Numbered from the stretch's first letter, positions 12,719 through 63,053 are shown. The stretch: 64,000 nt of DNA from an uncultured Verrucomicrobiae bacterium (GCA_963755515.1 CAVWKA010000002.1:10765-74764), one strand, 5' to 3'. Notes: generated from the letters alone by a model not told the origin. Numbers and translations are program-made.

Positions 12719-12814
12719 AATGAGGATTGAGGATTGAGGATTGAGGATTGAAGAATGAGGAATGAAGAATGAGGAATGAGGAGAAGGAAACGACGAAGAC
12801 GGGGATTTAACTGC
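12719..12814 (+). repeat. heptamer microsatellite (TGAGGAT/TGAGGAA)n plus conserved 35-bp flank, copy 1
   Basis: TGAGGATTGAGGATTGAGGATTGAGGATTGAAGAATGAGGAATGAAGAATGAGGAATGAGGAGAAGGAAACGACGAAGACGGGGATTTAACTGC. The same composite element lies at 31383-31474. Confidence 0.9.
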
Positions 12815-29975: not shown

Positions 29976-30581
29976 GAAGGGCGGGGGCGTCCGGGGGGGG
30001 CTGCCGCGTTTTCAAAAGGCACAACTCACGGCTCTTGCAGCGAAAAAAACCTTCTTAAGAATGAGCGATTTTGAGTTATTTTAATGCAAAGGATTTATTC
30101 AAAAAAGGTCAGAAGAAGTCTCACCAGATGATGTGAGCCGGTTCTCTTGAAAAAACTACGCGTATTTCGAAGGTGGCGAAATTTACGGGCGCCTTCCCCA
30201 AAGCGGTGTGGCGCTTCGCTTCCCCCCGCACTCCATGACGGCAAGCGAGTTCGTGGGCCTGTCCGCAGTTCGTTTATCAATAAAAACTGAGGCCGAAGAG
30301 GAGATGCGCGCTTCCGCCTACGCCAAGAGGCTACGGCGGACAGGTCGCCTCCGCTGCGCTTCCGTCTTCGTTGCACTCCGACGCGACGCGACGGCGCCGG
30401 CAGGTTGCAAATGCGGTTGTCGTTGGAGGCTCGGAGACCCAGGGCGGCGCTCGCAGACTCGCTTGACCTGGGCTACTATCGGTCACCCCTTCGGGGTATT
30501 ATTCTGCGGCTGCGCCGGAGGTTATTTGCAGTCAAAGCGAACCAAGAGGAAAATGACGCCGCTACAGTTTTTTTAGACGCG

Positions 30582-31382: not shown

Positions 31383-31474
31383 ATGAGGATTGAGGATTGA
31401 GGATTGAGGATTGAGGATTGAGGATTGAGGATTGAGGATTGAGGAAGGAAACGACGAAGGCGGGATTTAACCGC
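31383..31474 (+). repeat. heptamer microsatellite (TGAGGAT)9 plus conserved flank, copy 2
   Basis: ATGAGGATTGAGGATT...(9 units)...GAGGAAGGAAACGACGAAGGCGGGATTTAACCGC, located 80-170 nt upstream of the minus-strand DUF374 gene start. Confidence 0.9.
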
Positions 31475-40163: not shown

Positions 40164-40745
40164 TTGCGTTATAGTGTGGCCGTGAGCGATATCACCGTGG
40201 TTCTTGAGCGGGCGGAGAAGGGGGACCCAAAGGCCGCCGGCGAATTGTTGCCGCTGGTTTACGATGAGCTGCGCCGGTTGGCCGCACATCGGCTGGCCGG
40301 GGAACCGAACCAGCACACCTTGCAGCCGACGGCGCTGGTCCACGAAGCCTGGCTCAAGATTTCCAACGACGAGAAACGCAATTGGAATGGGCGGCAACAT
40401 TTCTTTGCCGCCGCGGCCGAGTCAATGCGCCACATTCTGGTGGACCGCGCGCGGCGCCGGCTGGCGGCGAAACGGGGCGCCGGCGAAACGCCGCTCGATG
40501 CGGATGATTTCGACCTTCCCGCGCCCGCGCCGGACGATCAGTTGCTGATGGTGAACGACGCGGTGGAGAAATTCGGCGCCGTGGACGCGCGCAAGGCCGA
40601 ACTGGTCAAGCTGCGTTACTTCGTGGGCATGTCGTTTGAAGAAGTGGCCGAAGCGTTGGGCATTGCGGTGCCGACTGCGAAACAGTGGTGGGCCTATGCG
40701 CGGGCGTGGCTGCGGGTGGAGATGGGCGGGCGAATCGAAACGTAG
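40164..40745 (+). CDS. ECF sigma factor of the kinase-associated type (ECF43-like, Sigma70_ECF family)
   Basis: ITVVLERAEKGDPKAAGELLPLVYDELRRLAAHRLAGEPNQHTLQPTALVHEAWLKI and the C-terminal KAELVKLRYFVGMSFEEVAEALGIAVPTAKQWWAYARAWL are characteristic. The start may be GTG 40182 rather than TTG 40164. Confidence 0.85.
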   Translation: MRYSVAVSDITVVLERAEKGDPKAAGELLPLVYDELRRLAAHRLAGEPNQHTLQPTALVHEAWLKISNDEKRNWNGRQHFFAAAAESMRHILVDRARRRLAAKRGAGETPLDADDFDLPAPAPDDQLLMVNDAVEKFGAVDARKAELVKLRYFVGMSFEEVAEALGIAVPTAKQWWAYARAWLRVEMGGRIET

Positions 40746-41430: not shown

Positions 41431-41523
41431 CAGATTCCATACTCTCAAGCGTAATCCGGGGGCAAAAGGGATGTCGAATTTTTTCAGATACTTTTTGCCG
41501 GCCAATTGCGCTTAATCATTTGG

Positions 41524-43722
41524 ATGAATGAAGGGGACCACAACGTGAAGCCAGACAACCAACGCGAGGCGGCGCTCTTTCAGGCCGCTGCCCAACTCAC
41601 GGGTTCCGCCCGCGGGGCGTTTCTGGACAGCGCCTGTCGCGACGACGCGGCCCTGCGTCAGCGGCTGGAAGCCCTGCTGGGCGCGCATGAGCAAGCTGGG
41701 GGTGTCCTGGCCGAGCCTGCGCCCGCGGCCAAGGGGACGATGAAAGTTGAGTTGGCGGTTGTTCCAGACGAATCCATCGGTCAGAAGATCGGGCGCTACA
41801 AAGTCCTTCAGAAAATCGGGGAGGGCGGTTGCGGGGCGGTCTATATGGCGGAGCAACAGGAGCCGGTGCGCCGCCGCGTGGCGCTTAAAGTGATCAAGCT
41901 GGGCATGGACACGAAGGCGGTGATCGCCCGATTCGAGGCGGAGCGGCAGGCATTGGCATTGATGGACCATCCGAACATTGCGAAGGTGCTCGATGCCGGC
42001 TCGACCGAGAGCGGTCGGCCATTTTTCGTGATGGAACTGGTGCGCGGGATCAAGCTCACCGAGTATTGCGATCAGAACCAACTGGATACGCGCACGCGCC
42101 TGGAATTGTTCATCCAGATTTGCCAGGCCATTCAGCACGCGCACCAGAAAGGCATCATCCATCGGGACATCAAGCCGTCGAACATTCTGGTGACGATGCA
42201 CGACGGGGTGGCGGTGCCCAAGGTGATTGATTTTGGGATAGCCAAGGCGACGACGGATCAACGGCTGACAGACAAGACGCTGTTCACGGCCTATGAACAG
42301 TTCATCGGCACACCGGCATACATGAGTCCGGAGCAGGCGGAGATGAGCGGGCTGGACGTGGACACGCGCAGCGACATCTACAGCCTGGGCGTGCTGCTTT
42401 ACGAGTTGCTGACGGGGAAGACGCCATTCGATCCGAAAGAACTGATGGAGTCCGGACTGGATGCAATGCGAAAGACGATTCGGGAGAAGGACCCAGTTCG
42501 GCCCAGCACCAAGCTGGCGACATTAGAGGGCGAGGAACGCACGACCACGGCGAAGCGCCGTTCGGTGGAGATCTCAAAACTTGCGAAGTTGTTGTCGGGG
42601 GATTTGGACTGGATTGTAATGAAATGTCTGGAGAAGGACCGGACGCGGCGTTACGACACGGCCAACGGGTTGGCCGCCGACCTCAGGCGGCATCTCAACA
42701 ACGAGCCGGTGGTTGCGTGCCCGCCGAGCGCCGCCTACAAGTTTCGAAAAGCCCTTCGGCGGAACAAGCTCGTGTTTACCGCGGCGGCGGCGGTGACGGC
42801 GGCGCTGGTGTTGGGGATCATTGCCAGCACCTGGCAGTCGGCGCGGGCAATTCACGCCAAACGGGAGGCTGAAGCCGCGGAAGCACAAGCCATTCAGGCG
42901 CAAGCCAACGAAACCAAACAGCGGCTGCTCGCTGAGCAGGAAGCCGCGCAGGCCGAACAGGCCAAAGAAATTGCCGACCATGAATCCATTGCCGCGCGGC
43001 GGACGGCGGGCGAGTCCGATGCCCGTTACCTGCTCCAGCAACGGCTTCTTCCCGCGGCGCTCGCCAAAGCGACTGAAGCATACAAACTCGGAGGCGAATG
43101 GGAGGATGGCCTGCTCATTGACGATATTGCCCGTGCCGCCCGCCAAACCTGGGTGCTGGCCGCCCGCGTGCCGTTGAGCGAACCGGCAAAGATGGCTTGC
43201 GTGGCTCGGATCAACGAGGAGGAGTGCGTGGTTTTGTGCGGAGCCGGCGGCCTTCGCGTCGTGGACGCCCGGAATGGCGCCACTCTTGGCGCGGCACCTT
43301 TTGCGGGACAAGTCCAGTATTTGTTTCCGGGTTCAAGTTCCAATTCCGTGGTTGCCGTTTCTGATTCCTCGGTTTCGGTTCTTTCTTTGCCGTCGCTCGC
43401 GGTTACAGCAACAAAGTCGGTCCCAAGTTCGATCAGCTTTGCGACGGCCACAGGCAACAGCCTCTTGCTGTTGCTCAACAGCCACGAGGTATGCCTTTAT
43501 GATCTTTCCAGCCTGTCGAATGTCGCTTCCTTCAACTGGGACCAGAATCCGGGCACGAAAGGATTTCAACTGCCGCGTCACGGCTGCGTTTCCCCCGACG
43601 GCAAACTCGTGCTGCTTCATGGCGGGAGCTGGGTGAATCCGGTGATTTTCTGGGACCGGCGAAGCGACCCGGCGAGCCTTCACGGTACTGAAGATACACC
43701 TGCAGGAGTTTCAATTTATTGA
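41524..43722 (+). CDS. Ser/Thr protein kinase, membrane-anchored, paralogue 1 (N-terminal domain + kinase + TM + coiled coil + start of beta-propeller); reading frame breaks near 43650-43700
   Basis: [37 protein letters not shown] and [34 protein letters not shown]. Start taken at ATG 41524; the track ORF begins at TTG 41506. Confidence 0.85.
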   Translation: MNEGDHNVKPDNQREAALFQAAAQLTGSARGAFLDSACRDDAALRQRLEALLGAHEQAGGVLAEPAPAAKGTMKVELAVVPDESIGQKIGRYKVLQKIGEGGCGAVYMAEQQEPVRRRVALKVIKLGMDTKAVIARFEAERQALALMDHPNIAKVLDAGSTESGRPFFVMELVRGIKLTEYCDQNQLDTRTRLELFIQICQAIQHAHQKGIIHRDIKPSNILVTMHDGVAVPKVIDFGIAKATTDQRLTDKTLFTAYEQFIGTPAYMSPEQAEMSGLDVDTRSDIYSLGVLLYELLTGKTPFDPKELMESGLDAMRKTIREKDPVRPSTKLATLEGEERTTTAKRRSVEISKLAKLLSGDLDWIVMKCLEKDRTRRYDTANGLAADLRRHLNNEPVVACPPSAAYKFRKALRRNKLVFTAAAAVTAALVLGIIASTWQSARAIHAKREAEAAEAQAIQAQANETKQRLLAEQEAAQAEQAKEIADHESIAARRTAGESDARYLLQQRLLPAALAKATEAYKLGGEWEDGLLIDDIARAARQTWVLAARVPLSEPAKMACVARINEEECVVLCGAGGLRVVDARNGATLGAAPFAGQVQYLFPGSSSNSVVAVSDSSVSVLSLPSLAVTATKSVPSSISFATATGNSLLLLLNSHEVCLYDLSSLSNVASFNWDQNPGTKGFQLPRHGCVSPDGKLVLLHGGSWVNPVIFWDRRSDPASLHGTEDTPAGVSIY

Positions 43723-45540
43723 CACCGATCATTTTGCCACCTGGGAATTGGTCGGCGGAGGAGAGACGGGAATGCCCGACAAGGTTAATATTTACGATGC
43801 CACAGCACGCTCCGGTCGTGGCCAGCTCGCAATCGGTTCCCAATGATGACATCAAGGGACACATCGGGTTTCAAGTCTGGAGTTCCAAGGATTGGCACTA
43901 TGACACAGATTTTCCCATCGTCGGGTGCATTGGGCCGTCCGGCCTGGGATCTTAAAGGCGTGGATATCACCGGGGAACAAGGCGGGAGATTTCACCTCAG
44001 TGATCGGTATGCGAATTTGTTGCCGACGGAAGCAAATATCCCGGCATTTCTTGCCGCGCGACATGGACAACGGCGTGCTGGCACTTCAATCCCCCAGCGA
44101 TCTTTTGATTTTCCAGTTAAGTTGGCGTTATTGGGATGGCTTCATCCGGGATTATTGCGCCACGGCGTGCTCCAACGGCTTGGTGTACGTTGACATTCAT
44201 TTGCATCCGAGCGCCACGCCTGGTGTTCCTTCCCTTCAATCCCCGCGAAAAGCGCGGCGCGTTTCAGCCTGCAATGGCCGGCCGACAGCAAATGGATGCC
44301 CTGGGCCATCGCCGCCACGCCGGACGCTTCCACTGTGGCCATCATCGCGGTCAGGAGACTGATTCCGGCGATACGATCAATGCGCGCTACGGTCGTGTCC
44401 GCGCTTTGATTTACCATCCCGGCGGTCTGGCGGACGCGCCTGCGGCGTGGCCTATCCGGAACGCTTTTCAGGTGGATGAGCCAGCCTTTAACGGTTTTAC
44501 ACCGCGTTTTCTGGTCATGGACCCGACGCCCAGCGCTTTGCTATATTGGGATTCCACGACCACCGTGACCCGCTATGATACCCGCTGATGGCAGGCCGCT
44601 TGGCTCACTTGAATTGGGCCTGGTCAGCGCGCATTCGCGTGATGGCCGCCGCGTCGGCACAGTTTCTCCGGCGGGCAGGATTCGTGTCTATGACGTCTCG
44701 ACCGGCGACACGATTCTTGACCAGCAGGGCAAACCGGCTTCCGGACTGTGCTTGTCCCCGGACGGCTCGCGCCTGGTGGCGTCCCAAGATGGCAGGATTA
44801 ACATTTACGACGAATCGTCGGGCCAGGTGCTCTCTTCGCTTTCTTCCCCTTTGGTGCCTTTGGCTTACCCGTCTCAGGGAAACCGCTTCCTTGCCTTTCA
44901 GCCCGATGAAACCGGTGATCGGAGGCTCCGTCGTTTTGGCGGATACGGCGAGATGCGCAGCGTCGCCGCCGTCCTCAACCGCGCGGGCACCAGTTTTACG
45001 CCGGCATTCTTCAGCGATTCCGGCGATCAAATTGCCGTCGTTGGCGACCGCTGGACGCCCAAGATCATCCGTTCTCTCCGCCCGGATGAACTCCCGGCGG
45101 TGCTGAATACCGGCCTTCCCGAAACCACTGAGATCCCGGCCCTTGAGCCTGCCAACATCGTCACCACCGCTCCCGCCGCGCCGCTCCTGAATCCATAGAT
45201 GTGCTGGGCGCGGACAACATTTCGGCGCTGCAATCGCACCTCGGCGACCTGGTGGCCGTTCAAGGGCGGGTCCGAAATTGTCAAGCTGGTCAAGCCGGAT
45301 CGCCGCAAACATTTACTTTGAGGGCGCGCGGGACCCCAACAGTCCAAGTGTGGGTGCCGTGGGGCCCATTTCCGAAATTCGAAGCGATCTTCGGCAGAGA
45401 CCTCGATGCCGCGCTGGATGGCCGCACCATAAGGGCGACCGGACGTCTTTCCGTTTACCAGGGGGAGCATCGAGGTGACGCTTGACGACCCGGCGAAATT
45501 TGTGATTGTCTCTCCGAGCGGCCAGTCCAATTAACTTCGC
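43646..45540 (+). pseudogene. frameshift-fragmented continuation of kinase 1 (beta-propeller/WD-like repeats), plus a fragmented approximately 110-aa C-terminal module
   Basis: Protein-like stretches alternate between frames: FTVLKIHLQEFQFIDTDHFATWELVGGGETGMPDKVNIYDATARSG (frame 2 from about 43680), ORFs 43843.., 43925.., 44136.., and 44575..45198 (RIRVYDVSTGDTILD..SPDGSRLVASQDGRINIYDESSGQV). The stretch 45201-45540 is readable only by switching frames (GDLVAVQGRVRN / HLYFEGARDPNSP / VWVPWGPFPKFEAIFGRDLDAALDGRTIRATGRLSVYQG / IEVTLDDPAKFVIVS). Confidence 0.5.
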
Positions 45541-45549
45541 CAAGAGACC

Positions 45550-48500
45550 ATGAATCAGAACCGTGAAGAGCTTTTATTTGGCCTGGCACTGACAAAATCT
45601 GCCAGCCAGCGGCTTGAGTTTCTCGACCGCGAATGCGGCGAAGACAGGGCGTTGCGCACCCGCCTCGAAGCCCTGCTCGCGGCGCATGAGCAAACCGAAG
45701 GCGTGCTGGCCGAACCCGCGCCGGCGGCCAAGGCGACGATGAAGATCGAATTTGCCGATGTTCCCGACGAAGCCGTCGGCCAGAAGATCGGGCGTTACAA
45801 GATGCTGGAGAAAATCGGCGAAGGCGGCTGCGGCGTGGTCTATGTGGCCGAGCAGACGGAGCCGGTCCGCCGCCGCGTGGCGCTCAAGGTCATCAAGCTG
45901 GGCATGGACACCAAGCAGGTCGTCGCCCGGTTCGAGGCCGAGCGGCAGGCGCTGGCGATGATGGACCATCCCAACATCGCCAAGGTGCTCGATGCCGGCG
46001 CGACGGAAACGGGCCGGCCTTACTTCGTCATGGAACTGGTGCGCGGCATCCGCATCACCGATTACTGCGACCAGAACAATCTGTCCACCAGGGAACGGCT
46101 GGATCTGTTCATCCAGGTCTGCCAGGCCATCCAGCACGCGCACCAGAAGGGCATCATCCACCGCGACATCAAGCCGTCGAACATCCTGGTGACGCTGCAC
46201 GACGGCGTGCCGGTGCCCAAGGTGATTGATTTCGGCATCGCCAAGGCGACCGCAGGCGCGGCTGACCGACAAGACGGTTTACACGCAGTTGCAGCAGTTC
46301 ATCGGCACGCCGGCCTACATGAGTCCGGAACAGGCGGAGATGAGCGGGCTGGACATTGATACGCGCAGCGACATTTACAGCCTGGGCGTGCTGCTTTACG
46401 AATTGCTGACGGGCAGCACGCCGTTCGATGCGCAAGGAACTGATGTCGCAGGGCATTGACGCGATGCGGCAAGACCATCCGGGAGAAGGAGCCGGTGCGG
46501 CCCAGCACGCAAGCTGGCGACGCTCAAGGGCGAGGAGCTGACGACCACGGCCAAGCGCCGTTCGGTCGGACACGTCGAAGCTGATGCACGCAGCTCAAGG
46601 GCGACCTGGACTGGATCGTGATGAAGTGCCTGGAGAAGGACCGCACGCGGCGTTACGAGACGGCCAACGGTCTGGCGGCGGACATCAAGCGGCATCTGAA
46701 CAACGAGCCGGTGGTCGCCCGTCCGCCGAGCACAGCTTATCGGTTTCAGAAAACCGTTTCGCCGGAACAAAGTTGGGCTTCGCCGCACGGCGGCCGTCAT
46801 TGTCGTCGCCTTGCTGCTCGGCATCATTGTCAGCACCTGGCAGGCGGTGCGCGCCACGCATCGCCAAGCGGGAAGCCGTGGCGGCGCAAGCGCGGCGAAG
46901 CAGTGCAACGACAAACAGGCTGACGCCAATGCAAAAGGAAGCTGACGCCGGCCAGACAAGGCCGAAGGCCAGCGCAGGAACTCGCCGCCCGCCAGCGCGC
47001 CTACGCCTCGGACATGAACGTCGCCATGCAGGCGCTGGCCGGAAGCAATCTCGGCCGCGCGCTGGATTTGCTGAACCGCCAGCGGCCCCAGCCGGGCCAG
47101 AAAGATTTGCGCGGCTGGGAATGGCGTTATCTCTGGCAGCAAACCCGCAGCGACGCCTTGTTCACCCTTTGCCAGGAATCCAGCGAAATCGAATCGCTGG
47201 CGGCTTCAGCCGATGGCCACTGGCTGGCGATCGGCGTGGACCACAATGGCGGGTGTTTGTGTGGGACCTGCGGACCCGGCAGGAGGTTGGCCCACCTCGC
47301 ACCGGACGAAGATGAGGTGCGCGCCGCCTTCTCACCGGCTGAATCCTCTGCTGGCCTTCACCAGCGTCAGCGTTCCGGCTTCGGGCAAGGAGCAAAACAC
47401 TTTGCGGCTCTGGAATGCCGCCACGCGACAGATGGTTGGCGAATTCCCACTGGATCGCGAGTGCGCGGGGCTGGCGTTCGCCAAGGATGGGCGGACGCTG
47501 GTGACTTCCACCGGCCGGAGGACGGCATCACTCTCTGGGCGCATGCCCGAAGGAACCAAGCTGGCCAGTTATCCATGCGACGATGAATTAGATGTTGATC
47601 CCGGGAACCGGTTTTGCCGCGACGCCGGACTTGAGTCTGGCGGCGTATATTACGGGCTGACAACGTCGCAGCAGGTTCGCGTCATGGATCTGCACGACGG
47701 CAAGGAACTTTGGAACGCGGCTGGCAGCCAAGGAATTTATCACCGCCCTGGCGTTTTCGCCGGATGGAAAAACGCTGGCGTCCGCCGCCGGATTCGGCGA
47801 GTCGGACATCCGCTTGTGGGACGTGGCCACCGGCAAGGAAATCGGGCGGCTGGAAGGCCACAAATCCTGGGTCGGCTCTTTGGTGTTCTGGCCGGATGGC
47901 AAAAAACTGGCCTCCAGCCAGCGCCGACCAGACGATTCGCATTTGGGATGTGGCCAGTCGCAAGTGCCTGGACGTGCTGCGCGGTCATCGTCAGGAGGTG
48001 TGGCGGCTGGCGTTGCTGCCGGATGACAAAACGCTGGTCAGCGGCGGCAAGGACGGCACGGTTTGCTTTTGGGACACGTCCGTCACGCATCCGCATCAGT
48101 CTCGCATCACCATGCCGGAGAAAGTGGTTGACTGGTGCTTCCCGCCGGAGAACCAATCAGTTCTCACCCTGGACCTGCAGGGCCAAGTGGCGCGAAGGTC
48201 TGGACCTGCCTTTCGACAGCAGGAACCGCTGCTGGACGTCGGCACCAATTTCATTTCCGATTCTTGGAACAATGTCTTCTCGCAGCGACGGACGCTTCCT
48301 GGCGTTCGGCTCGACCAACGGCGTCATCCAGGTTTGGGACGTATCCCGCCAGGTTCTGTGGCGTCAGTGGACGAATACAACGGGTGCTCGTAGCGCCCCT
48401 CGCATTTCTCGCAAACGGAAACAAGCTGGCAGTCTGGTCCAGGGCCGGCAATGTCGAATCACGAATGGGATCTTATAACCGGGCGGGAATTGCAATCGTG

Positions 48501-49039
48501 GCAGGCCGTTTCGGAAAGTTATCAAGAACAGATTCCATCGATCGTGACTTTCCCAGACGAAGAGCATTACGTGGCATTCGGGTTTAATGGCGCGGTCCAA
48601 TTCAAGGATGCGGCCAACGATGAGGTAATGGAAACCAACCTGGATTATCTGGAAGGCATTGCCGCGGCGGTTTCTCCCGATGGCAAACTCTTCGCCGTAG
48701 CCAGTTATTTGGGTTATGCGCGAGTGTGGGACACCGCGACCTGGCACGAGGGAGAGACGCTGCGCGGCTTTCTCAACGGCGTTAACTCGGTGGTTTTTTC
48801 ACCGGACAGCCAACGACTCGCCATCGGCGGCAGCAATCCCGACGATGCGGTGAAACTCTGGGACGTGAACAGTTGGCAGGACGTATTCACCCTGGAAGGC
48901 GCAGGCTCTCTTTTTGTGGATCTCCGCTTTTTCACCCGACGGCAACGTCATCGGCGCCCTGAGCAGTGACGGCATCTTGAACCTCTGGCGCGCGCCGTCC
49001 TGGGCGGAGATCCACGCGGCGGAGGCGCAACGACCATGA
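45550..49039 (+). pseudogene. Ser/Thr protein kinase with WD40 repeats, paralogue 2, broken by at least a dozen frameshifts
   Basis: The kinase domain is intact to about 46255 ([30 protein letters not shown]). Then [23 protein letters not shown] is in another frame, and [11 protein letters not shown] / KTIREKEPVRPST / KLATLKGEELTTTAKRRS / [21 protein letters not shown] each need a frame switch. WD40 units ([71 protein letters not shown]) are scattered over ORFs 47014.., 47213.., 47710.. and 48451... The last readable stretch SPDGNVIGALSSDGILNLWRAPSWAEIHAAEAQRP ends at stop 49037-49039. Confidence 0.8.
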
Positions 49040-49227
49040 ACCCAAATCGCGAAACTTTCCGGACCGGGAATGTGGCGACGACGCGGCCCTGTGCCAGCGG
49101 CCCGCAGCCTGCGCCGCCTCGATTTACCTCGTGACTACCATGAAAACCAAATTGCAGAACTTGACGCACACAACTGCCAATAAAGCTCTCAGCCCTTACC
49201 CTGAATCCCACCCGATGAACTCAGGGA

Positions 49228-49800
49228 ACCCACACCTCACCCTGACCGCATGAATCAGTTTTCTCCCCACAACCCTCACCCGGTCCCGCGGCGGGACCAC
49301 CCTCTCCCGCTCCCTCCTTCGCCAGAAGCGCTACGGAGGGCAGGCACGCGGGCGAGGGACAATCTCCCGTCCCATCGGATGGGAGGGGAGAGGGAATCCG
49401 TCTTCGGCGCGCTACGACGGGACGGGCAGCAGGCGGATGCTGGTTTCGCTTTCGAAGGGTCGGCGATTTCCGAGAGTCAGGTGGCTGGGCAAACGGATGT
49501 GCCGTGCCAAAGCGGCGTCGCGCTTCGCTTGCCGCCGCACTCCAAGACGCTGGCGCGCGGTTCGAATGGTCCCGGTAAAGACGGCGGACCCACACCTCAC
49601 CCTGACCGCATGAATCAGTTTTCTCCCCACAACCCTCACCCGGTCCCGCGGCGGGACCACCCTCTCCCGCTCCCTCCTTCGCCAGAAGCGCTACGGAGGG
49701 CAGGCACGCGGGCGAGGGACAATCTCCCCTCCCATCGGATGGGAGCGGAGAGGGAATCCGTCTTCGGCGCGCTACGACGGGACAGGCAGCAAGCGGACGC
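49228..49800 (+). repeat. two approximately 213-bp direct repeats (about 97% identical) separated by a 147-bp spacer
   Basis: 49228-49440 and 49588-49800 (ACCCACACCTCACCCTGACCGCATGAATCAGTTTTCTCCCCACAACCCTCACCCGGTCCCGCGGCGGGACC...), with an exact 360-bp offset. Track ORFs here are translations of the repeat. Confidence 0.9.
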
Positions 49801-49945
49801 CCATCGTTTTTCGGAAAACAATGGAGCCAACGACAGGTTCGGGGGGTCAAAGCGCGAATGTTTTCAGGGAAATCTCTCCGCGTTGAGGGGAGAGGGAAGC
49901 CGATATAGGGCGCATCGGCAATTCAAGTCTGAATTCAGTTCCGGT

Positions 49946-49983
49946 CTCACGCTGCCGCACGGCTACAGTTTTTCTTCAAACGC
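49946..49983 (+). repeat. dispersed element, copy 3 (3' half only)
   Basis: CTCACGCTGCCGCACGGCTACAGTTTTTCTTCAAACGC. Confidence 0.6.
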
Positions 49984-50074
49984 GCTCTGGTCTCCATGAC
50001 CGCTGCCAAGGCGACGATGATGATCAAGCAAAATAAACATTGCTGTTGCGACTGATCTCGGCGATAAGATTTCA

Positions 50075-51601
50075 ATGCTCGCGAAGGTTTCCTCGGCCGC
50101 GCTCAACGGTATCGAGGCTTTTCCGGTCGAAGTCGAAGTCAATGTCGCCTACGGCGACACTTTCATTGCCCTGGTTGGCCTGCCTGATGCCGCAGTCAAG
50201 GAATCGAAGGACCGGGTTTCGACGGCGCTGGGCAATTCCGGCTACAAATTTCCGATGGGACGCACCACCATCAACTTGGCGCCGGCTGATGAAAAGAAGG
50301 AAGGGCCGAATTTTGATTTGCCGATTGCGCTGGGGATATTGGCGGCGAGCGACCAAATTGTGACGGACCAGTTGGAGAATTTTGTGGCAGTGGGCGAACT
50401 GGCGCTGACCGGGGCGGTGCGGCCCAGCAAAGGGATGCTCCCGATGGCGCTGCGGGCGAAAGCGGATGGGAGGACAGGAATCCTTGTTCCGGCGGAAAAC
50501 GCGGCGGAAGCGGCAGTGGTTGCTGGATTGCAGGTGATCCCGGTGCAAAACCTGCGGGAAGCGGCGCAATTTCTCGAGGGAGAGATCAAGATTGCGCCCA
50601 CGCGGGTGGACATTGCGAAAATTTTTGAGCACGGCCACGAGGACGAACTGGATTTTTCCGAGGTCAAAGGACAGGAGAACGTGAAGCGCGCCCTGGAGAT
50701 TGCGGCGGCGGGCGGGCATAACATATTGCTCATCGGGCCGCCGGGGACTGGGAAGTCCATGCTGGCGAAGCGGCTGGCGACAATATTGCCGCCGCTGACG
50801 CTGGATGAAGCGCTGGAAACGACCAAAATCCACAGCATCGTGGGGCTGCTGGCGCCGGGGCAGGCGCTGGTGACGCAGCGTCCTTTTCGCGCGCCGCATC
50901 ACACGGCGAGCGACGCCGGACTGCTCGGCGGCAACATCAACCCGACGCCGGGGGAGATTTCACTGGCTCATCACGGAGTTTTATTTTTGGACGAGCTGCC
51001 GGAGTTCAAGCGCAGCGTCCTGGAAACCATGCGCCAGCCGCTCGAAGAGGGGCGGGTAACGATATCGCGCGCCGCCGGGACGATGACATTTCCTTCGCAA
51101 TTCATGCTGGTGGCGGCGATGAATCCGACGCCGGACGGCAAGATGCCGGGGGAGAGCCGGTCGTCGCCGCGGGAGATTCAGAATTATCTGGGGCGGATCT
51201 CCGGGCCATTGCTGGACCGGATTGATTTGCACGTGGAAGTGCCGCAGGTGAAGTTTCAGGAGATTTCGAGCGACCGAATGGGCGAGACCTCGGAGCAAAT
51301 CCGGGAGCGGGTGGTTGCGGCGCGGGGGATCCAGCAGAAGCGCTTTGCGCACAAGCCGAAAATCACGTGCAATGCGCTACTGGGGCCGAAGGAACTGAAG
51401 GAGTATTGCCGGCTGGACGAGGGGACGATGGAGTTGCTGAAGAGTGCGATGTCTGACTTGAATTTCAGCGCGCGGGCGTATGACCGGATATTAAAGGTGG
51501 CGCGGACGATCGCGGATTTGGCTGGCGCAGAAAATATTTTGAGCGAGCATATATCGGAAGCGATCCAGTACCGCACGCTGGACCGGCAATTGTGGACATA
51601 A
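50075..51601 (+). CDS. comM: YifB/ComM-family Mg-chelatase-like AAA+ ATPase
   Basis: 508 aa. N-terminal Lon-like domain (FDLPIALGILAAS), Walker A LLIGPPGTGKSMLA, GVLFLDELPEF, and the C-terminal SARAYDRILKVARTIADLAG motif. Confidence 0.95.
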   Translation: MLAKVSSAALNGIEAFPVEVEVNVAYGDTFIALVGLPDAAVKESKDRVSTALGNSGYKFPMGRTTINLAPADEKKEGPNFDLPIALGILAASDQIVTDQLENFVAVGELALTGAVRPSKGMLPMALRAKADGRTGILVPAENAAEAAVVAGLQVIPVQNLREAAQFLEGEIKIAPTRVDIAKIFEHGHEDELDFSEVKGQENVKRALEIAAAGGHNILLIGPPGTGKSMLAKRLATILPPLTLDEALETTKIHSIVGLLAPGQALVTQRPFRAPHHTASDAGLLGGNINPTPGEISLAHHGVLFLDELPEFKRSVLETMRQPLEEGRVTISRAAGTMTFPSQFMLVAAMNPTPDGKMPGESRSSPREIQNYLGRISGPLLDRIDLHVEVPQVKFQEISSDRMGETSEQIRERVVAARGIQQKRFAHKPKITCNALLGPKELKEYCRLDEGTMELLKSAMSDLNFSARAYDRILKVARTIADLAGAENILSEHISEAIQYRTLDRQLWT

Positions 51602-51605
51602 AAAT

Positions 51606-53462
51606 ATGAATTATCGAGTGCGCCGCCGTGGCGAGGAGTTGGGAACTTTTTCCCCGGACGATTTGCGCCGTCGGCGCGAGGCGGGAGAATTTTCCGGTGA
51701 CGAATACGTTCAGGCGGAAGGCATGAACGACTGGCAGCCGTTGGATTTGGTTTTGCGACAAGGTTATGTCAGGCCGCCGCCATTGCCGGGAGGCGTTGCC
51801 AACCGCAGCGCCGGCCCAAATCCGGTTTTGGTTTGGACGTTGATTGTTTTCGGCGCGGTTGTTTTTGTGGTGATCATTGCGGCATTTGTGCGCGGGATTC
51901 AACGCGCTGTCACCGTTGCGCAGGAAACGCAAACGCGTTATTTGAATATGGCGCGGCCGGACGCATTAGCCGCGGCGACGAAACCGGTTGTTTGGACGAC
52001 AAACACGTTGACGGAAGCGGACGCACAGAAACGCGCGCGCGAATTCAGAATAAGGCAATGGGTTGACGGTTACCAAAAGCGCGGCGAACGCAATCCGGAA
52101 TGCGACGCGGAAATCGTGACATTTCTCCAAACGTGGATCGCGCGCAATTACGGGGGCGCGGCGGCAACCAATACCCTGGTGCTATCGGCGGAAGCCGACA
52201 AGCTGGCAAGAGACACAAATTGCACGGACCCGCTGGCGCTGACGGCCATCGCGGGTGAAACGCAGAACCGCGCCGAAGCCATCCGCTGTTTGCAAAGGGC
52301 GCTGGACGCCTTTCCAAAATCAAAGCACGAAGCGTATCCGAAATTTTACGCGGACGTCATCTCCGCGCTGGATTCGTCGGCGCTTCGGCAATTCGCCGCA
52401 TGTTTTTCCGACGGCAGCTTCGCCCCGGTTGATCAACAGGAAATTGGGGAAATTTTTGTCAACGGCTGGGGTGATCGTTTTTTTGAACGCAACGGTGACG
52501 CGGTTTGCAAAATTGCGAATGAAGCCGGCACCAATTTCCAATGGCTCGCCCTCACGCTCGAAGGCGAAAATGAAATCAACCTGGCATGGGCCGCGCGCGG
52601 CAGGGGTGGCGCTGACGCGGTGACTTCAAGCGGCTGGAAAGGATTCCGCGACCATTTGGCCGCGGCACGGAGCGATTTGACCGAGGCATGGAATTTGCGG
52701 AGGAATTATCCGCTGGCGCCGAGATTGATGATAACCGTCGCGCTCGGCGATTCGGGGATCACGGAAATGCGCCAATGGTTTGACCGGACAACGATCGCGC
52801 AAATTGATTATCCCGGCGCATGGGCGGAAATGCGTTGGGGATTGCGCCCGCGTTGGTATGGCAATTTGGACGCGATGCTCGCCTTCGGGCGGACCGCCGT
52901 CGCCACGCGGCGGTTTGACACCGACGTGCCGCGGAAATTCATTGACAGCGTTTATGACGTGGAAGCGGAGATGAATCTGCCGCGCGGCCATTACCTTTTT
53001 GGCCGGGCCGACATTTGGCCGCAATTGCAAATCATTTATTCCGGCTATCTCAACGAACCTTCGCAAGCGCCCTATCGAAATGGCTGGCTCACGTCGTATG
53101 CCATCATTGCTTGTTACGCCGGGAAATACGATGTGTCACGAGCGCAGTTGGAAGCGCTCAACTGGAAACCGCAGCGAAGCATTCTGGCGGAATGGAATTT
53201 GGACGCGACGCTTTGGCCTTTGGAAGTGGCAGCCCTTAGCGGGCCGCTCGGCGGTAAAGTTTCCGCCGCTGAAACGTTTTTCCAAAATGGAGATACCGCC
53301 GCCGCGTTAAAGAGATACAAGGAATTAAATTCAAACCCTGATGCCGACGGGCGGACGAAGGAATTTATTCGGCGGCGGCTGGCATTGTTGAATGCAGAGC
53401 AGGGGATGCTTCCGCAGCAAGATCGAACAATGGCCATTCCGATGCCGTCGGTCACCAATTAA
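51606..53462 (+). CDS. GYF_2 (DUF4339) domain membrane protein, otherwise uncharacterised
   Basis: N-terminus YRVRRRGEELGTFSPDDLRRRREAGEFSGDEYVQAEGMNDWQPLDLVL is GYF-like. One TM (VLVWTLIVFGAVVFVVIIAAFV), followed by a helical domain of about 500 aa. Confidence 0.7.
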   Translation: MNYRVRRRGEELGTFSPDDLRRRREAGEFSGDEYVQAEGMNDWQPLDLVLRQGYVRPPPLPGGVANRSAGPNPVLVWTLIVFGAVVFVVIIAAFVRGIQRAVTVAQETQTRYLNMARPDALAAATKPVVWTTNTLTEADAQKRAREFRIRQWVDGYQKRGERNPECDAEIVTFLQTWIARNYGGAAATNTLVLSAEADKLARDTNCTDPLALTAIAGETQNRAEAIRCLQRALDAFPKSKHEAYPKFYADVISALDSSALRQFAACFSDGSFAPVDQQEIGEIFVNGWGDRFFERNGDAVCKIANEAGTNFQWLALTLEGENEINLAWAARGRGGADAVTSSGWKGFRDHLAAARSDLTEAWNLRRNYPLAPRLMITVALGDSGITEMRQWFDRTTIAQIDYPGAWAEMRWGLRPRWYGNLDAMLAFGRTAVATRRFDTDVPRKFIDSVYDVEAEMNLPRGHYLFGRADIWPQLQIIYSGYLNEPSQAPYRNGWLTSYAIIACYAGKYDVSRAQLEALNWKPQRSILAEWNLDATLWPLEVAALSGPLGGKVSAAETFFQNGDTAAALKRYKELNSNPDADGRTKEFIRRRLALLNAEQGMLPQQDRTMAIPMPSVTN

Positions 53463-54249
53463 GCGGGGACCGTCTTTTTGAGCGCACTTTCCACGGCGGT
53501 GCGGTAAATAACGTCCACGACGTTCCGAAGATATTGTTCGTCGGCGACGCCGTCGGTGGCTTCCGGCGGGAAATCCACTTTGGCGCGGAAATGCCGGCCA
53601 GGTCACCGAACAATTCCACGCGCGCCACCGGGTCAAATTCTCGCGTCGCAACAGCGCCTGCAAAGCGATGTCCGCTTCCGCCGGTGAAACATTCTGCCGC
53701 AGGCGCGCGACGAGGTGCGGAAATTGCCGGAGCGAATTGTATTTGCCGGCGAGCAATTGGTCCAGATCCGGCTCGGAGATCTGCGGGGTGCGGATGACAA
53801 CGGTGTTGGCGGCGATGTCGCCCAGGCGCTGGCATTTTGAGTTGAGCCAGCAGGTCAGGCCGCCGACAAAATAAAACAGCCGGCAATGCATCCACGAACC
53901 GCAGCAGGTTGCGCACGACGATTTGGTTGAATTGCAGCCGCATTCCTTCCGCGTCCACCACGCGCAGGCGGAACAGCCTCTTGCCGATGGTCTGGCCGCG
54001 CCAGCTCCATTCAAAAAAAATCCCGTAGCCGATGCCGACGACAAACCAGCCGATGACCAAAAAGCGCAGGGCAAATTCAAAGCTGAGCACTTCGAGCAGA
54101 CTGCATGAGCGATTCCCAGAACCATCAGGCAAGACCAGGATGCAAAGCTGGTCAATGAACCACGCGAAAAACCGGGTCACCGGCCCGGCCAGCAATTGCG
54201 AAAACACGATGCCTTCCGGCGTACGGATGAACAGGGTGCTGGTTTTCAT
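53459..54249 (-). pseudogene. RDD-family membrane protein, frameshifted at least 3 times
   Basis: FIRTPEGIVFSQLLAGPVTRFFAWFIDQ...WRGQTIGKRLFRLRVVDAEGMRLQFNQIVVRNLLRFVDALP in one frame; GGLTCWLNSKCQRLGDIAANTVVIRTPQISEPDLDQLLAGKYNSLRQFPHLVARLRQNVSPAEADIALQALLRRE in a second; HFRAKVDFPPEATDGVADEQYLRNVVDVIYRTAVESALKKTVPA in a third. Confidence 0.6.
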
Positions 54250-55297
54250 TTACAGGCCGGTGCGGACCGGTTTTGGTTTTCAAAGGCGCGCGGCTTTGTG
54301 CCCGCCGCCTTTGATTTTCCCGATTTTGACAGAAACAGAGACAGCAGAATCAGTTCAACGGCGCCAAAGGCGATTTTGGCCTCGTAGGGAATGACCGGTT
54401 CGTGATATTGCGAGAGAAATGCTTCGATAAATCCCGCCCAGACCAGCAGCACGCCGACGCCAAAAATCAGCGTGACGACGTCGCCCGAAATTTCGCGCAA
54501 CCGCGCTTCGCAGCGGGGCGCGGCTGCCCCGGCCGATCAGCGCCAGCGCCAGCATCAAGCCGGCCTGGCCGGCGATGAGAATGGCCGGGATTTCGATCAC
54601 GCCGTGCGGCATCAGCCAGCCGAGCAGAAATTTTGTTTGCCCGGCGCGGATGTAATCCACCGCCACCGCGCCGAGAATCACGCCGTTGTAAAACAGCATG
54701 AGGATCGTGCCGAAGCCCCACGTCATTCCGAGCGCCAGGGTGAAGATGGAAACCTTGGTGTTATGCGTCATCAATTCCGCCGAGAAAGTGGTTTTGTACC
54801 CTGCCAGCCGGTCATTCGTGGCTTTTTCCTCCTCGGCCACGCGTTTGGCCGGGTCTTGCAGCAAATGGGAGAACGGCATCAGCACCGGCTTTGGCGTCCG
54901 GGTCAAAGGCAATGGCCAGCCCGCCGAAGGCGCAGCCCGCCAGGGTGATGGCCAGCGAAAAATAAAAGGCCCGGACATGCCGGCGAAACGTTTGCGGCAG
55001 CGTCTGGAAAAACCATTGCAGCGGGAAAAAACGTCGCTGTTTTTCGCGCGTCTCGTGAATTTCGCCATAGGCGCGGGCGACCAGATTTTCCAGATAGCGC
55101 CGCGTTTCCGGTTCGGAGGAAAGGTCGTGATTTTTGCCAGGTCGGCGGCGGTGCGCTCGTAAAGATGATGGAACAGCTGCAATTGCGGCAGTGTCATCCG
55201 CCAGTCCGGCTCGCGCTTCCATCCGGTCGAGCAATTTCTCCAGCTCGGTCCAGAACGGCCGCTCGCCGGCGATGAAACGTTGCAGATCAACAATCAC
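54246..55297 (-). pseudogene. SpoIIM-like (DUF95) membrane protein, frameshifted at least 4 times
   Basis: MIVDLQRFIAGERPFWTELEKLLDRME / MTLPQLQLFHHLYERTAADLAKITTF / SSEPETRRYLENLVARAYGEIH...AFDPDAK / PVLMPFSHLLQD...MTHNTKVSIFTLALGMTWGFGTILMLFYNGVILGAVAVDY...LMPHGVIEIPAILIAGQAG / REISGDVVTLIFGVGVLLVWAGFIEAF alternate between two frames. Confidence 0.6.
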
Positions 55298-56637
55298 AAC
55301 AATTGCCTTTGTTTCACGTTCAGGTATTGCGAGACCAGTTCGGCGCTCAAACGTTCGTTGCCGAGCAGCGAAAATTGCACGCCGCGCCGCTGCAAGATCT
55401 TTTGCAACTCGCGCAATTTCTGCCAGCGCAAATGGCCGCCGAGTCGCCGATACAAATCATCCATGCCCGCCACGTCCGGATCTGGCAAAGAGCGGCTTCA
55501 CGCCCGGCGGTTGCATCATGTTACCAGACCAAATGCTGGCGGCGGATCAATTCCATATTGCGGACGAAATTTTCCGCCATGGCCGGGATCGTCCAGCGCC
55601 GTCAGAAAAACCAGCAGCGCGCGGCGGCGCAGCCGCAGCCGGATGAAGGCGCACAGTTCGTCAAAATCCGGCGTGACGATTTTCGGCTCGAGCGTGTAAA
55701 GCGCGTCGCGGCAGGCGTTGTAATGCGCCTTGCCGTTTTTTGCGCGCACGAATTTTTCCACTTTGTCGGTGAATGTCAGCAGTCCGAACAAGTCCCCCTG
55801 CCGTTCCGCCGCCAGCCCCAGCACCAGCGCGGCGGTGACGAAACGTTCCAGCGTGGAATTCGCTTTCGCATATTTTCATTTGATTGTGCGCGCGCTCAAG
55901 CGCGACGCATCCACGATCACGTAAACCTCCTGGGTTTTTTCGATTTGAAAGACTTTCGTGATGGGTTTGCCGCGCCGCGCGGTGGCTTTCCAATGGATTT
56001 CGTCATAGCCGTCGCCGGGAACGTATTCGCGCAGTTTTTCAAAATCGCGGCCCTTGCCGACCTGCCGTTGCGCGTGCAAGCCAAAAGCGCCGCGATTCAG
56101 AAACAGCGCCGCAAGATTTTTTCGTTCGTTGAGCAAGTTGGGATAAACGCGGATTTCCGATTGCGCCGGAAAGGTTTTGCGCGCCGCCCAAAATCCGAGC
56201 GGCGAACGGCTTTCAATATAGGCCGAATCGAGTTTGTAATTGCCGCGTTTGAGCGGCGTGCACGGCCAGGCCAGCCGCGACCATTCGCTGTGCGCGGGCA
56301 GCAGCGCGTCCAATTCTTCGGTTTCGGTCATGATTTCGCGCGGCCAGGCCAGCGCCACGCGCAGATTTTTTTTGCATGCTGGCGTTCGGTTGCGGATGCG
56401 CAATTCCAATTTTGCCTCGCGGTCTTTCGACATGCGGGCGACCGGCGGAAGTTCGAGGCCGATGCCCGCCAGACTTTTTCGGGCGCCGATGGCATCGGCC
56501 ATCGCCACCAACAACAGTCCGCCAATGAAGCAACAGCGATACACCGATGGCAGTTGGCGCGACCGCGCCATGAGCAATGCGAACGGCAGAACGATCGCCG
56601 CCACCCAAAACAACAATCTGTAGCGCGGAACAATCAT
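55294..56637 (-). pseudogene. DUF58 protein (MoxR partner), frameshifted at least 3 times
   Basis: ORF 55876..56637 carries GRDFEKLREYVPGDGYDEIHWKATARRGKPITKVFQIEKTQEVYVIVDASR (DUF58 core). The continuation lies in ORF 55516..55824 (MLGLAAERQGDLFGLLTFTDKV) and ORF 55294..55488 (..DDLYRRLGGHLRWQKLRELQKIL..). Confidence 0.7.
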
Positions 56638-57595
56638 CGCGGCACGGCGATTTGCTGGAGAATTTGCTGGATGACTTCGGCCACGGTCAGTCCTTCGATT
56701 TCAAATTCCGGCCGCAGAATCAAACGATGTTCCAGCACCGGCGGCGCCATCATTCTTGATGTCGTCCGGCGTGACGAAATCGCGGCCGGAAATCGCGGCA
56801 TAGGCGCGCGCCGCCATGATCAGCGATTGCGTGGCGCGCGGGCCGGCGCCGACCAGGATGCTTTCGTGCTGGCGCGTGGCGCGGACGATGTCCACGAGAT
56901 AGGCGATCAGTTCATCGCGCATGACGATGGCCGCCAGCTCTTCACGCAGCGACGACCAAATCTTCCGGCTTGATGACCGGCTGCACGGCACCCTGGCGAG
57001 CAGTGTTTCCGGCGCGTCCTTGGTCATCGTGCGCTGCGCGAGCGACAAGTTCCTCGGCGCGGTCGGGCGCGGCCATGGTGATTTTGAGCATGAACCGGTC
57101 TTTCTGCGCTTCGGGCAGCGGATAGGTGCCTTCGTATTCAATCGGATTTTGCGTGGCGAACACGGTGAAATTCGGCGGCAGCGGATGGGTGTCGCGGTCA
57201 ATCGTCACCACGCGTTCCTGCATCGCCTGCAGCAGCGCCGACTGGGTCTTGGCCGGCGCGCGGTTGATTTCGTCGGCCAGCAGGAACGAGGTGAAGACCG
57301 GGCCTTTGATGAGCGAGAATTCGTTGCGCTGCAGGTTGAAAACATTCGTGCCGGTGATGTCGGCGGGCATGAGGTCGGGCGTGAACTGGATGCGGGCGAA
57401 ATCGGCGCCGAGCACGCGGGCGAGCGTGCGCACGAGCAGGGTTTTGGCGACGCCGGGCACGCCTTCGATGAGCGCGTGGTTGCCGGTGAAAATGGCGATG
57501 AGCGCCTTTTCGATGACGTCGTGCTGGCCGATGATGACTTTGCCGGTTTCGTGCCGCGCCTGCGCGAGGACTTCCTTGAGTCTTTCAGTGTTCAT
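56634..57595 (-). pseudogene. MoxR-family AAA+ ATPase, C-terminal third frameshifted at least 3 times
   Basis: Intact N-terminal two thirds ([15 protein letters not shown] Walker [50 protein letters not shown]). Then [19 protein letters not shown] / [13 protein letters not shown] / EELAAIVMRDELIAYLVDIVRATRQH...FVTPDDIK / MMAPPVLEHRLILRPEFEIEGLTVAEVIQQILQQIAVPR lie in different frames. ATGA overlap with the DUF58 start. Confidence 0.8.
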
Positions 57596-57607
57596 AATTT
57601 TTGTGAT

Positions 57608-58853
57608 TCATGGGGTTCCCAATGCATCGGCAGATTTTTTTATAAGTTGCGATGGGATTGCGGTCCTTGGGCGGCAGGGAATTTTCCGCTGAGAAACGGC
57701 CTCGGCCTGCTGCAGCCTGCGTCGAGGAGCTATTTCCGCCTGCGCCGACCGTTTTTTTCCATTCGGCAAAACAGGCTGCGCAGCAAGTCGCGCGGCGCGA
57801 TGCTGCGGCGGAGCAGATTGACAAAGCCAGCGGCGGAATCTTTGCCGGCCACAAAATCCTGCCGTTTTTTCATCGGCGCGCGGCGGCACGAGGCTGGTGG
57901 CATTTTTCCAGATGAACAAGTCCGGCCAGCAAGCAGCAATCCGGCGGCCAGCCCGTGCAACCGATATTTGCGCATCAACGTCGCGACGCCGGCTTGTTTC
58001 GACGATGCCAAAATGCGCCTCGTCAAAAACCACGTTTTTGTTCGAGCCCGACGAGCCACGCCAGCAAATCCGCATGGCGGTCCCTGGCCATGGCTTCATT
58101 GCTGACGAAATAAGAATCAGTGGCCAAGACGACCGAGCCATTGCCAAATTGTCGTTCGATGACGACGGCGTTGGTGCCGCGCGCATAAATCGCGCGCCAG
58201 GCGCTGTCGCAATTGGTGAAAACAATGCCGCTGTGCCAATCCAGGGTTTTCGGCAGGGTCAAATCGGTTTTGTTGACGACATTGACCGGCGCGTAGGTGT
58301 CGCCGTTTTGCTCCAGCTTTTCGAAGCCGGGATGAAACCCCCATTCGTCTTCCAGCGAGACCCAATCTTCCTCGTCGTCAGAAATTCCGCTTTTTTTCAA
58401 TGGCTTTGGCGGTGTCATTTTTTCATTTTTCGATCTGGCAGACGCCACATCATTGGTGTCGCCTTCATCGCTGTAATCAAAATCGTATCCCTCGGTTTGG
58501 GGAAAGAAAGTAATGACGAGCCGGTTGCCACGGGCGAGGAAATTTTGGATTTCCTTAAATGAATCCGGGGAGAGCCAGTCGAATTCATACGGCGAACCGG
58601 CCAGATGCAAATAAACCGTTTGCGCCTCTTCGGGCAAACGGTTGTCGGCGCTAAAATCGCGGGACGCCGAAACGCCGGGAATTTTTTCAAGGCTCTCATA
58701 AAGCGCCATGGTGCCGAGCGGATCGGCCCGAAGCGAAGAATAGGGCGGGTAAACGTCGCCATGCTCGAAGCGCAATTCAAAAAGCTCGGTGATGCCGAGC
58801 CCAAAAACGGCCGCGCAGCCGAGCAAGATGAAAATGGGAAGATAGTTTTTCAT
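57608..58853 (-). pseudogene. DUF4350-like protein; N-terminal approximately 270 aa intact, C-terminal part frameshifted (from about 58050 downward)
   Basis: Start at ATG 58853 (MKNYLPIFILLGCAAVFG), with an ATGA overlap with the upstream gene. ..ADLLAWLVG is followed in another frame by NKNVVFDEAHFGIVETS, then GVATLMRKYRLHGLAAGLLLAG in a third. The exact 3' end is uncertain. Confidence 0.6.
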
Positions 58854-60502: not shown

Positions 60503-60825
60503 TGCTGGTCAATCCAATGAACCTGCCAAAGGGCGCCTTCATGAAACGAATCCGGCAATTTCAGCAAGCCTTGGCCGATGAGAAAGAAGAAAAACCAGGC
60601 GACGAAGATCCCGAAAACCAGTTGCGCCAGCCGGAAAAGCCACGCCAGAGAAAGCCGCGGCGACAACGGCTGGCGGGCCAATTTTTTGAGACAAGCGGAA
60701 CAGACGACGCGGTCGTCGTGTTCGGTGACGCATTCGCGGCAAAAGAACTGTTTGCATACCGGGCAGCGCGCCACGGCTTCGCGACCGGCGTGGTTAAAAC
60801 AACGTTGTTGGGAGAGAGTTTGCAT
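60499..60825 (-). CDS. B-box-like zinc-finger membrane protein
   Basis: 108 aa from ATG 60825: CFNHAGREAVARCPVCKQFFCRECVTEHDDRVVCSACL, then one TM (LAQLVFGIFVAWFFFFLIG). Its stop overlaps the next start (ATGA). Confidence 0.6.
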   Translation of the reverse strand: MQTLSQQRCFNHAGREAVARCPVCKQFFCRECVTEHDDRVVCSACLKKLARQPLSPRLSLAWLFRLAQLVFGIFVAWFFFFLIGQGLLKLPDSFHEGALWQVHWIDQQ

Positions 60826-60826
60826 T

Positions 60827-61444: not shown

Positions 61445-61445
61445 A

Positions 61446-62758: not shown

Positions 62759-63053
62759 ATTTAGATCGAAATTTCCGCCGAATTTTACCTGCAAAATGCC
62801 ACAACCCGGACAGTGATGGCAAAATTATTTTTGGGATTCATAGCGCGGCCACTCACCGTTTTTCGGGATTTTCAATTGTTTTTCGGGGTGCCAAGGGCAT
62901 GGGCAACGAAGCGCCGCGCCCGTGCCAGGGAAAACTGGGGGCGTACTGAAAGAAGCACACTGGAAAAAAGACTTGCAAACTTGTGGAGCAGGAAGAAAAT
63001 CACGAAAAGGCCCCACGCGGGTCGTGGGCAGGAAACCAAATGGGAAATATCAG

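Follow-up and report, generated by a model that had tools for sequence, protein, structure and literature searches.

The question raised by the DNA considered here is whether a dense series of frameshifts in two neighbouring protein kinase genes records the decay of those genes or a fault in the assembled sequence. The window analyzed is a stretch of 64,000 nucleotides (nt) from an uncultured Verrucomicrobiae bacterium (GCA_963755515.1 CAVWKA010000002.1:10765-74764), with about 57% G+C and dense in coding sequence, in which two Ser/Thr kinase genes lie on the + strand downstream of a gene for an extracytoplasmic function (ECF) sigma factor (40164-40742). The initial annotation had noted that the first kinase reads cleanly over its first part, that its remainder and the second kinase require repeated frame switching, and that a locally poor consensus explains this better than pseudogene decay. 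The evidence presented below leads us to the same preference: with a probability of roughly 0.9, judged from sequence comparison, the frameshifts would be errors of the assembled consensus and not mutations of the organism.

Coding frames along the window were assigned by a Viterbi path over codon usage, trained on the window's long open reading frames (ORFs). The kinases were reconstructed by three-frame translation and frameshift-aware protein-to-DNA alignment with their closest full-length homologues, namely P0002 (1260 amino acids, aa) for kinase 1 and P0053 (1169 aa) for kinase 2. The codon model switches frame rapidly at 43656-49028 and, on the minus strand, at 53458-58869; these regions correspond to blocks 1 and 2 of Table I. 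Long intact ORFs are present elsewhere in the window, as had been stated.

Frameshifts within the two kinase genes

Kinase 1 occupies positions 41524-45534, from the ATG at 41524 to the stop codon at 45532-45534; the ORF taken from its first start codon, 41506-43722, comprises 738 codons. Inspection of the three forward frames reveals that kinase 1 stays in a single frame up to 43719, after which protein-like sequence hops between frames. Alignment to the reference protein keeps a single frame as far as 43675; from there to the end of the gene it requires 12 corrections (43678, 43802, 43947, 44059, 44216, 44253, 44350, 44580, 44917, 44957, 45196, and 45468), which bears out the described course of the gene. 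Once corrected, kinase 1 is a full-length protein of 1337 aa with 0 internal stops, in which the Pkinase domain is recognized with an E-value of 1.1e-47. Kinase 2 (45550-49039, stop codon 49037-49039) begins to hop between frames at about 46250, and its reconstruction takes 25 corrections in the range 46252-48916, five of them inside 46433-46590; at least a dozen switches in this gene, several only 30-60 nt apart at 46440-46620, had been noted beforehand. The reconstructed protein has 1153 aa, with the kinase domain followed by WD40 / β-propeller Pfam matches, and the only stop symbol in its alignment to the reference sits in a poorly aligned coiled-coil stretch.

Block 1 in total contains 37 corrections in 5242 nt, a density of 1 per 142 nt. 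With events this frequent, the clean upstream part of kinase 1 (2152 nt) would contain none with a probability of 2.5e-7, and the clean 3384 nt of the two downstream genes with a probability of 4e-11. The boundaries of the indels are sharp and independent of gene structure, with an onset in the middle of a gene at 43676. The density of indels, described earlier as uniform, is not so, since a 783-nt island (45469-46251) contains none; 5.5 events are expected there at the block rate (P = 0.004 if the interval is regarded as pre-specified), and when the island is taken as the longest of 37 gaps its probability is only about 0.14 by our own estimate. A truncated 732-aa product of kinase 1 (P0001) is present in public protein collections, and the frameshifts therefore belong to the deposited sequence.

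Table I. Positions of the features discussed, with the ratio of nonsynonymous to synonymous substitution rates (dN/dS) against the sister contig where it was computed
Feature	Position (nt)	Strand	Basis and remarks	dN/dS
ECF-type sigma factor gene, intact	40164-40745	+	Pfam PF07638 Sigma70_ECF, E 1.7e-52; NCBIfam TIGR02999 Sig-70_X6, E 1.4e-57, above curated cut-off	
Kinase 1, clean part (N-terminal motif, Ser/Thr kinase domain, transmembrane and coiled-coil region, start of C-terminal domain)	41524-43675	+	one frame, no indel	0.17 (pre-block part)
Block 1A, remainder of kinase 1	43676-45468	+	12 frame corrections; alignment to P0002 and sister contig; 92% amino-acid identity to sister contig after correction	0.21
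Clean island (end of kinase 1, spacer, kinase 2 N-terminus and kinase domain)	45469-46251	+	0 gap columns against sister contig over 783 nt	0.075
Block 1B, kinase 2 (activation loop, transmembrane segment, coiled coil, WD40 β-propellers)	46252-48917	+	25 frame corrections; alignment to P0053 and sister contig	0.19
Relic of 5' end of third kinase paralogue (MNPNRE..., FLDRECGDD-like motif), intergenic after kinase 2	49034-49110	+	49056-49109 80% identical to 41620-41673; also in sister contig	
Non-coding direct repeat, two 230-nt copies	49211-49800	.	95% identical, gapless, 360 nt apart; contains G/C-rich palindrome	
Clean stretch between blocks: ComM/Mg-chelatase-like (50075-51601), GYF/TPR protein (51606-53462)	50075-53462	+	both ORFs intact	0.078 (ComM-like gene)
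Block 2 (RDD-family, SpoIIM-like, DUF58, MoxR ATPase, DUF4350 genes)	~53650-58034	-	alignment of proteins of syntenic locus; lower edge from codon model only	
RDD-family gene	53452-54249	-	Pfam covers first 126 residues only; codon-model frame switches at 53648, 53879	
SpoIIM-like gene	54273-55360	-	4 frameshifts, down to 54504	
DUF58 gene	55297-56637	-	5 frameshifts	
MoxR ATPase gene	56637-57595	-	4 frameshifts	
DUF4350 gene	57609-58853	-	6 frameshifts, 58034-57780	
Clean stretch after block 2, four genes of same operon (550, 205, 190, 259 aa)	58850-62794	-	no frameshift against orthologues of syntenic locus over 62758-58853	

Both kinases can be compared with their counterparts on a contig from a sister population (L002; European Nucleotide Archive ERZ27256528, 8467 bp, with MEGAHIT-style, i.e. 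short-read, naming), which encodes P0053. Its gene order is that of the window: a kinase-1 orthologue represented by its C-terminal 736 codons, an intact kinase-2 orthologue of 1169 codons and a ComM/Mg-chelatase-like gene of 508 codons. Both kinase reading frames are open, so that this independent assembly of a close relative carries the same genes without the indels. BLASTN alignment of the sister contig gives 88.6% identity with 69 gap openings over 43310-49027, and 93.3% identity with 0 gaps over 50030-51600; no gaps occur over 43310-43675, upstream of the block. When gaps less than 15 nt apart are merged into one cluster, the global alignment contains 37 frameshifting clusters, equal to the count from the protein alignments, 29 of which are net +1. 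Each corrected kinase is colinear with its own orthologue over its whole length. In the more distant relatives L001, L085, and L086 the kinase-1-type C-terminal domain is also found in a single frame. The genomes retrieved through the ComM-like protein, with best matches in a metagenome-assembled genome (MAG) of Limisphaerales (bog_1421, 86% aa identity) and a Verrucomicrobiia MAG (84%), are uninformative for block 1, because in the genomes related through this gene, these two included, no kinases lie beside it.

As a separate observation, position 1 of the sister contig corresponds to position 43310 of the window and precedes the first frameshift by only 366 nt, which may be fortuitous or may hint at a break of short-read assemblies in this vicinity.

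Constraint on the corrected reading and nature of the indels

Reading the window codon by codon through the frames of the sister contig, with the indels removed, allowed the selective constraint to be estimated for each zone. The dN/dS values of the reconstructed kinases, 0.21 in block 1A and 0.19 in block 1B, match the 0.17 of the unshifted part of kinase 1, and mismatches fall mostly at codon position 3 in all zones. No genuine internal stop is found in the approximately 1450 corrected codons; the only stops in this reading are the true stop of kinase 1 and one TAG within a misaligned 25-nt gap cluster, where the protein-guided alignment contains none. The divergence at position 2 in block 1A, 2.4%, sets the number of neutral substitutions at no more than about 43 in 1.8 kb, as compared with at least 12 indels, and the indel-to-substitution ratio is far above natural values. 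Small indels of natural origin in bacteria are deletion-biased, associated with repeats and several-fold rarer than substitutions. Taken against the sister contig, the isolated events of block 1 are 26 insertions and 2 deletions of a single base, besides one insertion and one deletion of 2 nt; for single bases this is an insertion:deletion ratio of 13:1. The presence of 37 indels with no nonsense codon, the unrelaxed constraint, and the 13:1 excess of insertions together make natural decay a poor fit.

These results bear directly on the possibility that the indels are real and that both ECF-linked kinases, together with the MoxR operon of block 2 discussed below, are very young pseudogenes. 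The frameshifts are indeed part of the deposited sequence, truncated products of 732 aa (P0001) and 217 aa (P0121) being found in public collections; kinase paralogues are numerous (at least 8000 matches), which would make the loss of two tolerable, and the relic of a third kinase next door indicates that such genes do decay here. Pseudogenes would nevertheless have had to collect 37 indels and yet no genuine nonsense codon, with a dN/dS indistinguishable in range from that of the intact part, by an insertion bias outside repeats that is the reverse of the natural bacterial spectrum, at an indel-to-substitution ratio far above natural, beginning in mid-gene and sparing an island, while the genes of the sister population remained intact. 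Genuine pseudogene fields, such as those of Mycobacterium leprae or of recent symbionts, display nonsense mutations, relaxed dN/dS, deletion bias, and no fixed block size. The present locus resembles them in that several neighbouring genes carry many frameshifts, and differs from them in its lack of nonsense codons, its dN/dS of about 0.2, its insertion bias, its sharp edges, and the existence of intact orthologues. We consider pseudogenization very unlikely.

Among the 26 isolated inserted bases, 20 (77%) lie outside runs; 51% of the bases of the block have a run length of 1, and the homopolymer content of block 1 equals that of the sister contig. The insertions being mostly outside runs and the homopolymer content unchanged, the classical homopolymer-length error that is the signature of nanopore, 454, and Ion Torrent data was rejected. 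A GC dinucleotide results from 14 of the 19 isolated insertions of G or C, as compared with 5.8 ± 2.0 by chance (P < 0.0002); a GC-creating insertion is [G]C or G[C] (inserted base in brackets), one event viewed from either strand. This excess indicates a systematic process. By eye, about 4-5 of the 49 single insertions create or touch GATC (the Dam motif), too few for any claim.

The indels might also be real through a localized mutational process, namely a shower of insertion-biased, GC-creating single-base events in tracts of about 5 kb. It is conceivable that error-prone repair synthesis over a long patch would be the source, with two tracts hit very recently, before substitutions accumulated; altogether we regard this as highly improbable. 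Programmed ribosomal frameshifting or some other recoding may, to judge from the sequence, be set aside as practically negligible: all that speaks for it is the good protein obtained on correction, and it would have to operate at 37 + 19 sites (blocks 1 and 2) of heterogeneous context, without a common slippery motif, by both +1 and +2 corrections, and at sites none of which is shared with the sister contig or any homologue.

A test for the writing of both alleles of a polymorphic site favours a mixture of strains, but is weak and suggestive only. In 13 of the 20 isolated insertions outside runs the added base can be taken for a synonymous alternative allele of its neighbour, as compared with 8.8 ± 2.2 expected (P = 0.04), and for all 49 single insertions the figures are 25 and 16.6 ± 3.3; examples of such doubled alleles are GC[G]C, AC[G]C, and CGG[C]. 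C/G differences account for 91 of the 343 real third-position differences.

A second block in an unrelated operon and the probable origin of the indels

Block 2, separated from block 1 by a clean 4.7 kb, covers an operon on the minus strand that has no relation to the kinases. It was compared with the proteins of a syntenic locus (L003) whose gene content is GYF/RDD, three unnamed genes, DUF4350, MoxR, DUF58, and SpoIIM. At least 19 frame corrections are required, of which 16 of 19 are single extra bases; an analysis of these indels at base level is unreliable, the comparator being too distant and alignment skips being forced to codon boundaries. The RDD-family gene is probably frameshifted too. 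The corrected MoxR is identical at 290 of 318 positions (91%) to an intact homologue of 319 aa, and among the matches listed the MoxR homologues on recorded contigs longer than about 5 kb have 319-329 aa throughout. The ORF 56942-57595 is the 217-aa MoxR fragment already mentioned (P0121), recorded from the same contig as the truncated kinase 1. Further along, the codon model makes five frame switches within 62800-64000, where no homologue supports a frameshifted gene; this region may be another patch of poor consensus or may merely code weakly, and a third block is not claimed.

The initial annotation had added that, were the indels real, the locus would be a striking case of targeted loss, with both sensory kinases of an ECF module affected. 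Since lesions of the same type occur in an unrelated operon 4.7 kb away, a targeted loss is refuted. The same finding weighs further against pseudogenization, as the MoxR operon is conserved and has clean genes on either side.

It also bears on the suggestion that a chimeric consensus arose when the two kinase genes, or further paralogues from other parts of the genome, were collapsed or mis-joined; a collapse of strains between the two paralogues had been proposed. The N-terminal halves of the kinases are indeed 77-86% identical over several hundred nucleotides, and the family is very large. However, this likeness is restricted to the N-terminal half, and the greatest similarity is seen precisely where the sequence is clean (kinase domain of kinase 1, 45550-46251 in kinase 2), whereas the frameshifted C-terminal halves are unrelated, one being without a Pfam family and the other consisting of WD40 repeats. 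Each corrected gene follows its own orthologue throughout, and block 2 is made of single-copy operon genes with no paralogue. No repeats were found at the block edges besides the kinase paralogy and the relic at 49.06 kb. A paralogue collapse does not account for the second block and appears most improbable.

The explanation that we favour, errors of the consensus, had been preferred beforehand for block 1 and is supported by the intact genes of the sister contig, the insertion bias, the dN/dS of about 0.2, the edges that ignore genes, and the existence of block 2. Removal of the indels restores full-length colinear proteins for kinase 1, kinase 2, and MoxR; the independent assembly of a close relative does not contain them; and they disregard gene, strand, and function, as seen from their onset in mid-gene and from their recurrence in an unrelated minus-strand operon. 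The contig, 346 kb (346,085 bp) long, would then contain within this window at least two read-sized patches of poor consensus (43676-48917 and ~53650-58034) with clean sequence around them. Small indels, nearly always one extra base, would occur at about 0.7% in these patches, which are 4.4-5.2 kb in size and alternate with clean stretches of similar size. The cell itself most likely has both kinases intact, kinase 1 with about 1337 aa and the WD40 kinase 2 with about 1153 aa.

As to the cause, a stretch of long reads that was of low depth or left unpolished, or a gap between short-read contigs that was filled with long reads, stands at about even odds. A hybrid scaffold or one resting on few long reads fits because of the 4-5 kb alternation of clean and dirty sequence and the clean 783-nt island. 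A consensus of mixed strains, with the two alleles of a polymorphic site written in succession, is a possible but lesser candidate, and what remains falls to some other error of the pipeline. In the proovframe preprint (10.1101/2021.08.23.457338) and the Polypolish report (PMC8812927), as well as in PMC9262707, residual small indels are described as fragmenting genes in long-read assemblies and as persisting where depth or mapping is poor, and Kastor (PMC12007338) also addresses gene-fragmenting residual indels of long-read or hybrid (meta)genome assemblies. The present case shares with such errors the splitting of genes into consecutive ORFs of different frames, the full-length conserved protein obtained on correction, the local character, and the propagation of truncated products into databases. 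It differs from the usual homopolymer-length errors by the isolated insertions outside runs, by the excess of insertions over deletions and by the GC dinucleotides that the G/C insertions make; its confinement to read-sized patches of an otherwise clean contig is also unlike the usual description of long-read errors.

Several points weigh against this explanation. The artefact is deduced from the sequence and not observed in reads. The indels are not of the homopolymer type described for nanopore assemblies in PMC9262707 and PMC8812927, and single-base insertions outside homopolymers that create GC match no platform or assembler that we can name. The sister contig comes from a population at 88-93% identity and not from the same strain. 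For the variant with mixed strains in particular, the insertion junctions are without clear enrichment beside third positions (18/16/15 in the full set).

Taken at face value, the sequence would be reported as having lost the kinases of an ECF module and a MoxR operon, inflating pseudogene counts for an uncultured lineage of Verrucomicrobiota. The value of the present result lies in quality control and not in biology, the truncated kinase and MoxR products being public already. Such patches can be recognized without reads by means of an intact syntenic orthologue, the insertion:deletion ratio, the absence of nonsense codons, the dN/dS after correction and the recurrence in unrelated neighbours. 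The odd signature of the errors, single extra bases outside homopolymers that create GC, may help to trace the faulty step of the pipeline.

The sigma factor-kinase module and the surrounding sequence

The gene content reported for this locus, an ECF sigma factor followed by two Ser/Thr kinases, is upheld by the PF07638 / TIGR02999 gene and the kinases downstream of it. The 2009 classification of Staron et al. reportedly includes an ECF43-type association, in which Ser/Thr kinases adjoin an ECF sigma factor. The locus is similar in that two membrane Ser/Thr kinases directly follow a sigma factor of the PF07638 / TIGR02999 type, a likeness of gene content only, by which no group is assigned; the kinases here have large C-terminal sensor-like domains. 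Such a combination of sigma factor and kinases is nothing unusual in Verrucomicrobiota and Planctomycetota. In all likelihood the module is intact, and the frameshift block, read as consensus error, is not a biological feature. The C-terminal domain of the reconstructed kinase 1 (residues ~490-1337, about 850 aa; window 43000-45534) matches no Pfam family at E 1e-5; it is kept in L001, L002, L085, and L086, and the β-propeller hints obtained on the homologue P0002 are weak or faint. The named homologues of the kinases and of MoxR come mostly from Verrucomicrobiae MAGs, and the organism is an uncultured, probably Limisphaerales-like member of the Verrucomicrobiota.

Downstream of kinase 2, the remnant of a third kinase paralogue has also been preserved in the sister contig, whose positions 5723-5771 align to 49024-49072, and is therefore a genuine old remnant. 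About 890 nt around the direct repeat that follows are absent from the sister contig. An ORF of 249 aa (49250-49999) was rejected as a gene, since it overlies the repeat, matches no Pfam family and is non-coding according to the codon model; the right edge of block 1 is therefore bounded only between 48917 and 50030. A 29-mer of the 230-nt element recurs at 30212-30240, which suggests that the element is a dispersed intergenic repeat.

Other repeats occur in the window. Non-coding tandem arrays are found at 13478-13788 (104 nt x 3, 90% identity), 12708-12782 (heptamer AGGAATG x 10.6), and 31384-31445 (heptamer TGAGGAT x 8.9); the frame switching at 12.7-13.8 kb was accordingly rejected as a sign of frameshifted genes, being due to such non-coding repeats. 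At 23977-24654 and 28332-29134, tandem repeats of 51/153 nt are in frame within ORFs of 792 and 683 aa, which look like fibre-like repeat proteins, the 683-aa ORF ending in a Peptidase_S74 (endosialidase chaperone) domain. Finally, at 3348-4434 there are overlapping ORFs in different frames, one (3348-4130) with a SPASM domain and the other (3565-4431) with a Radical_SAM domain, which may be two adjacent genes or the result of an isolated frameshift.

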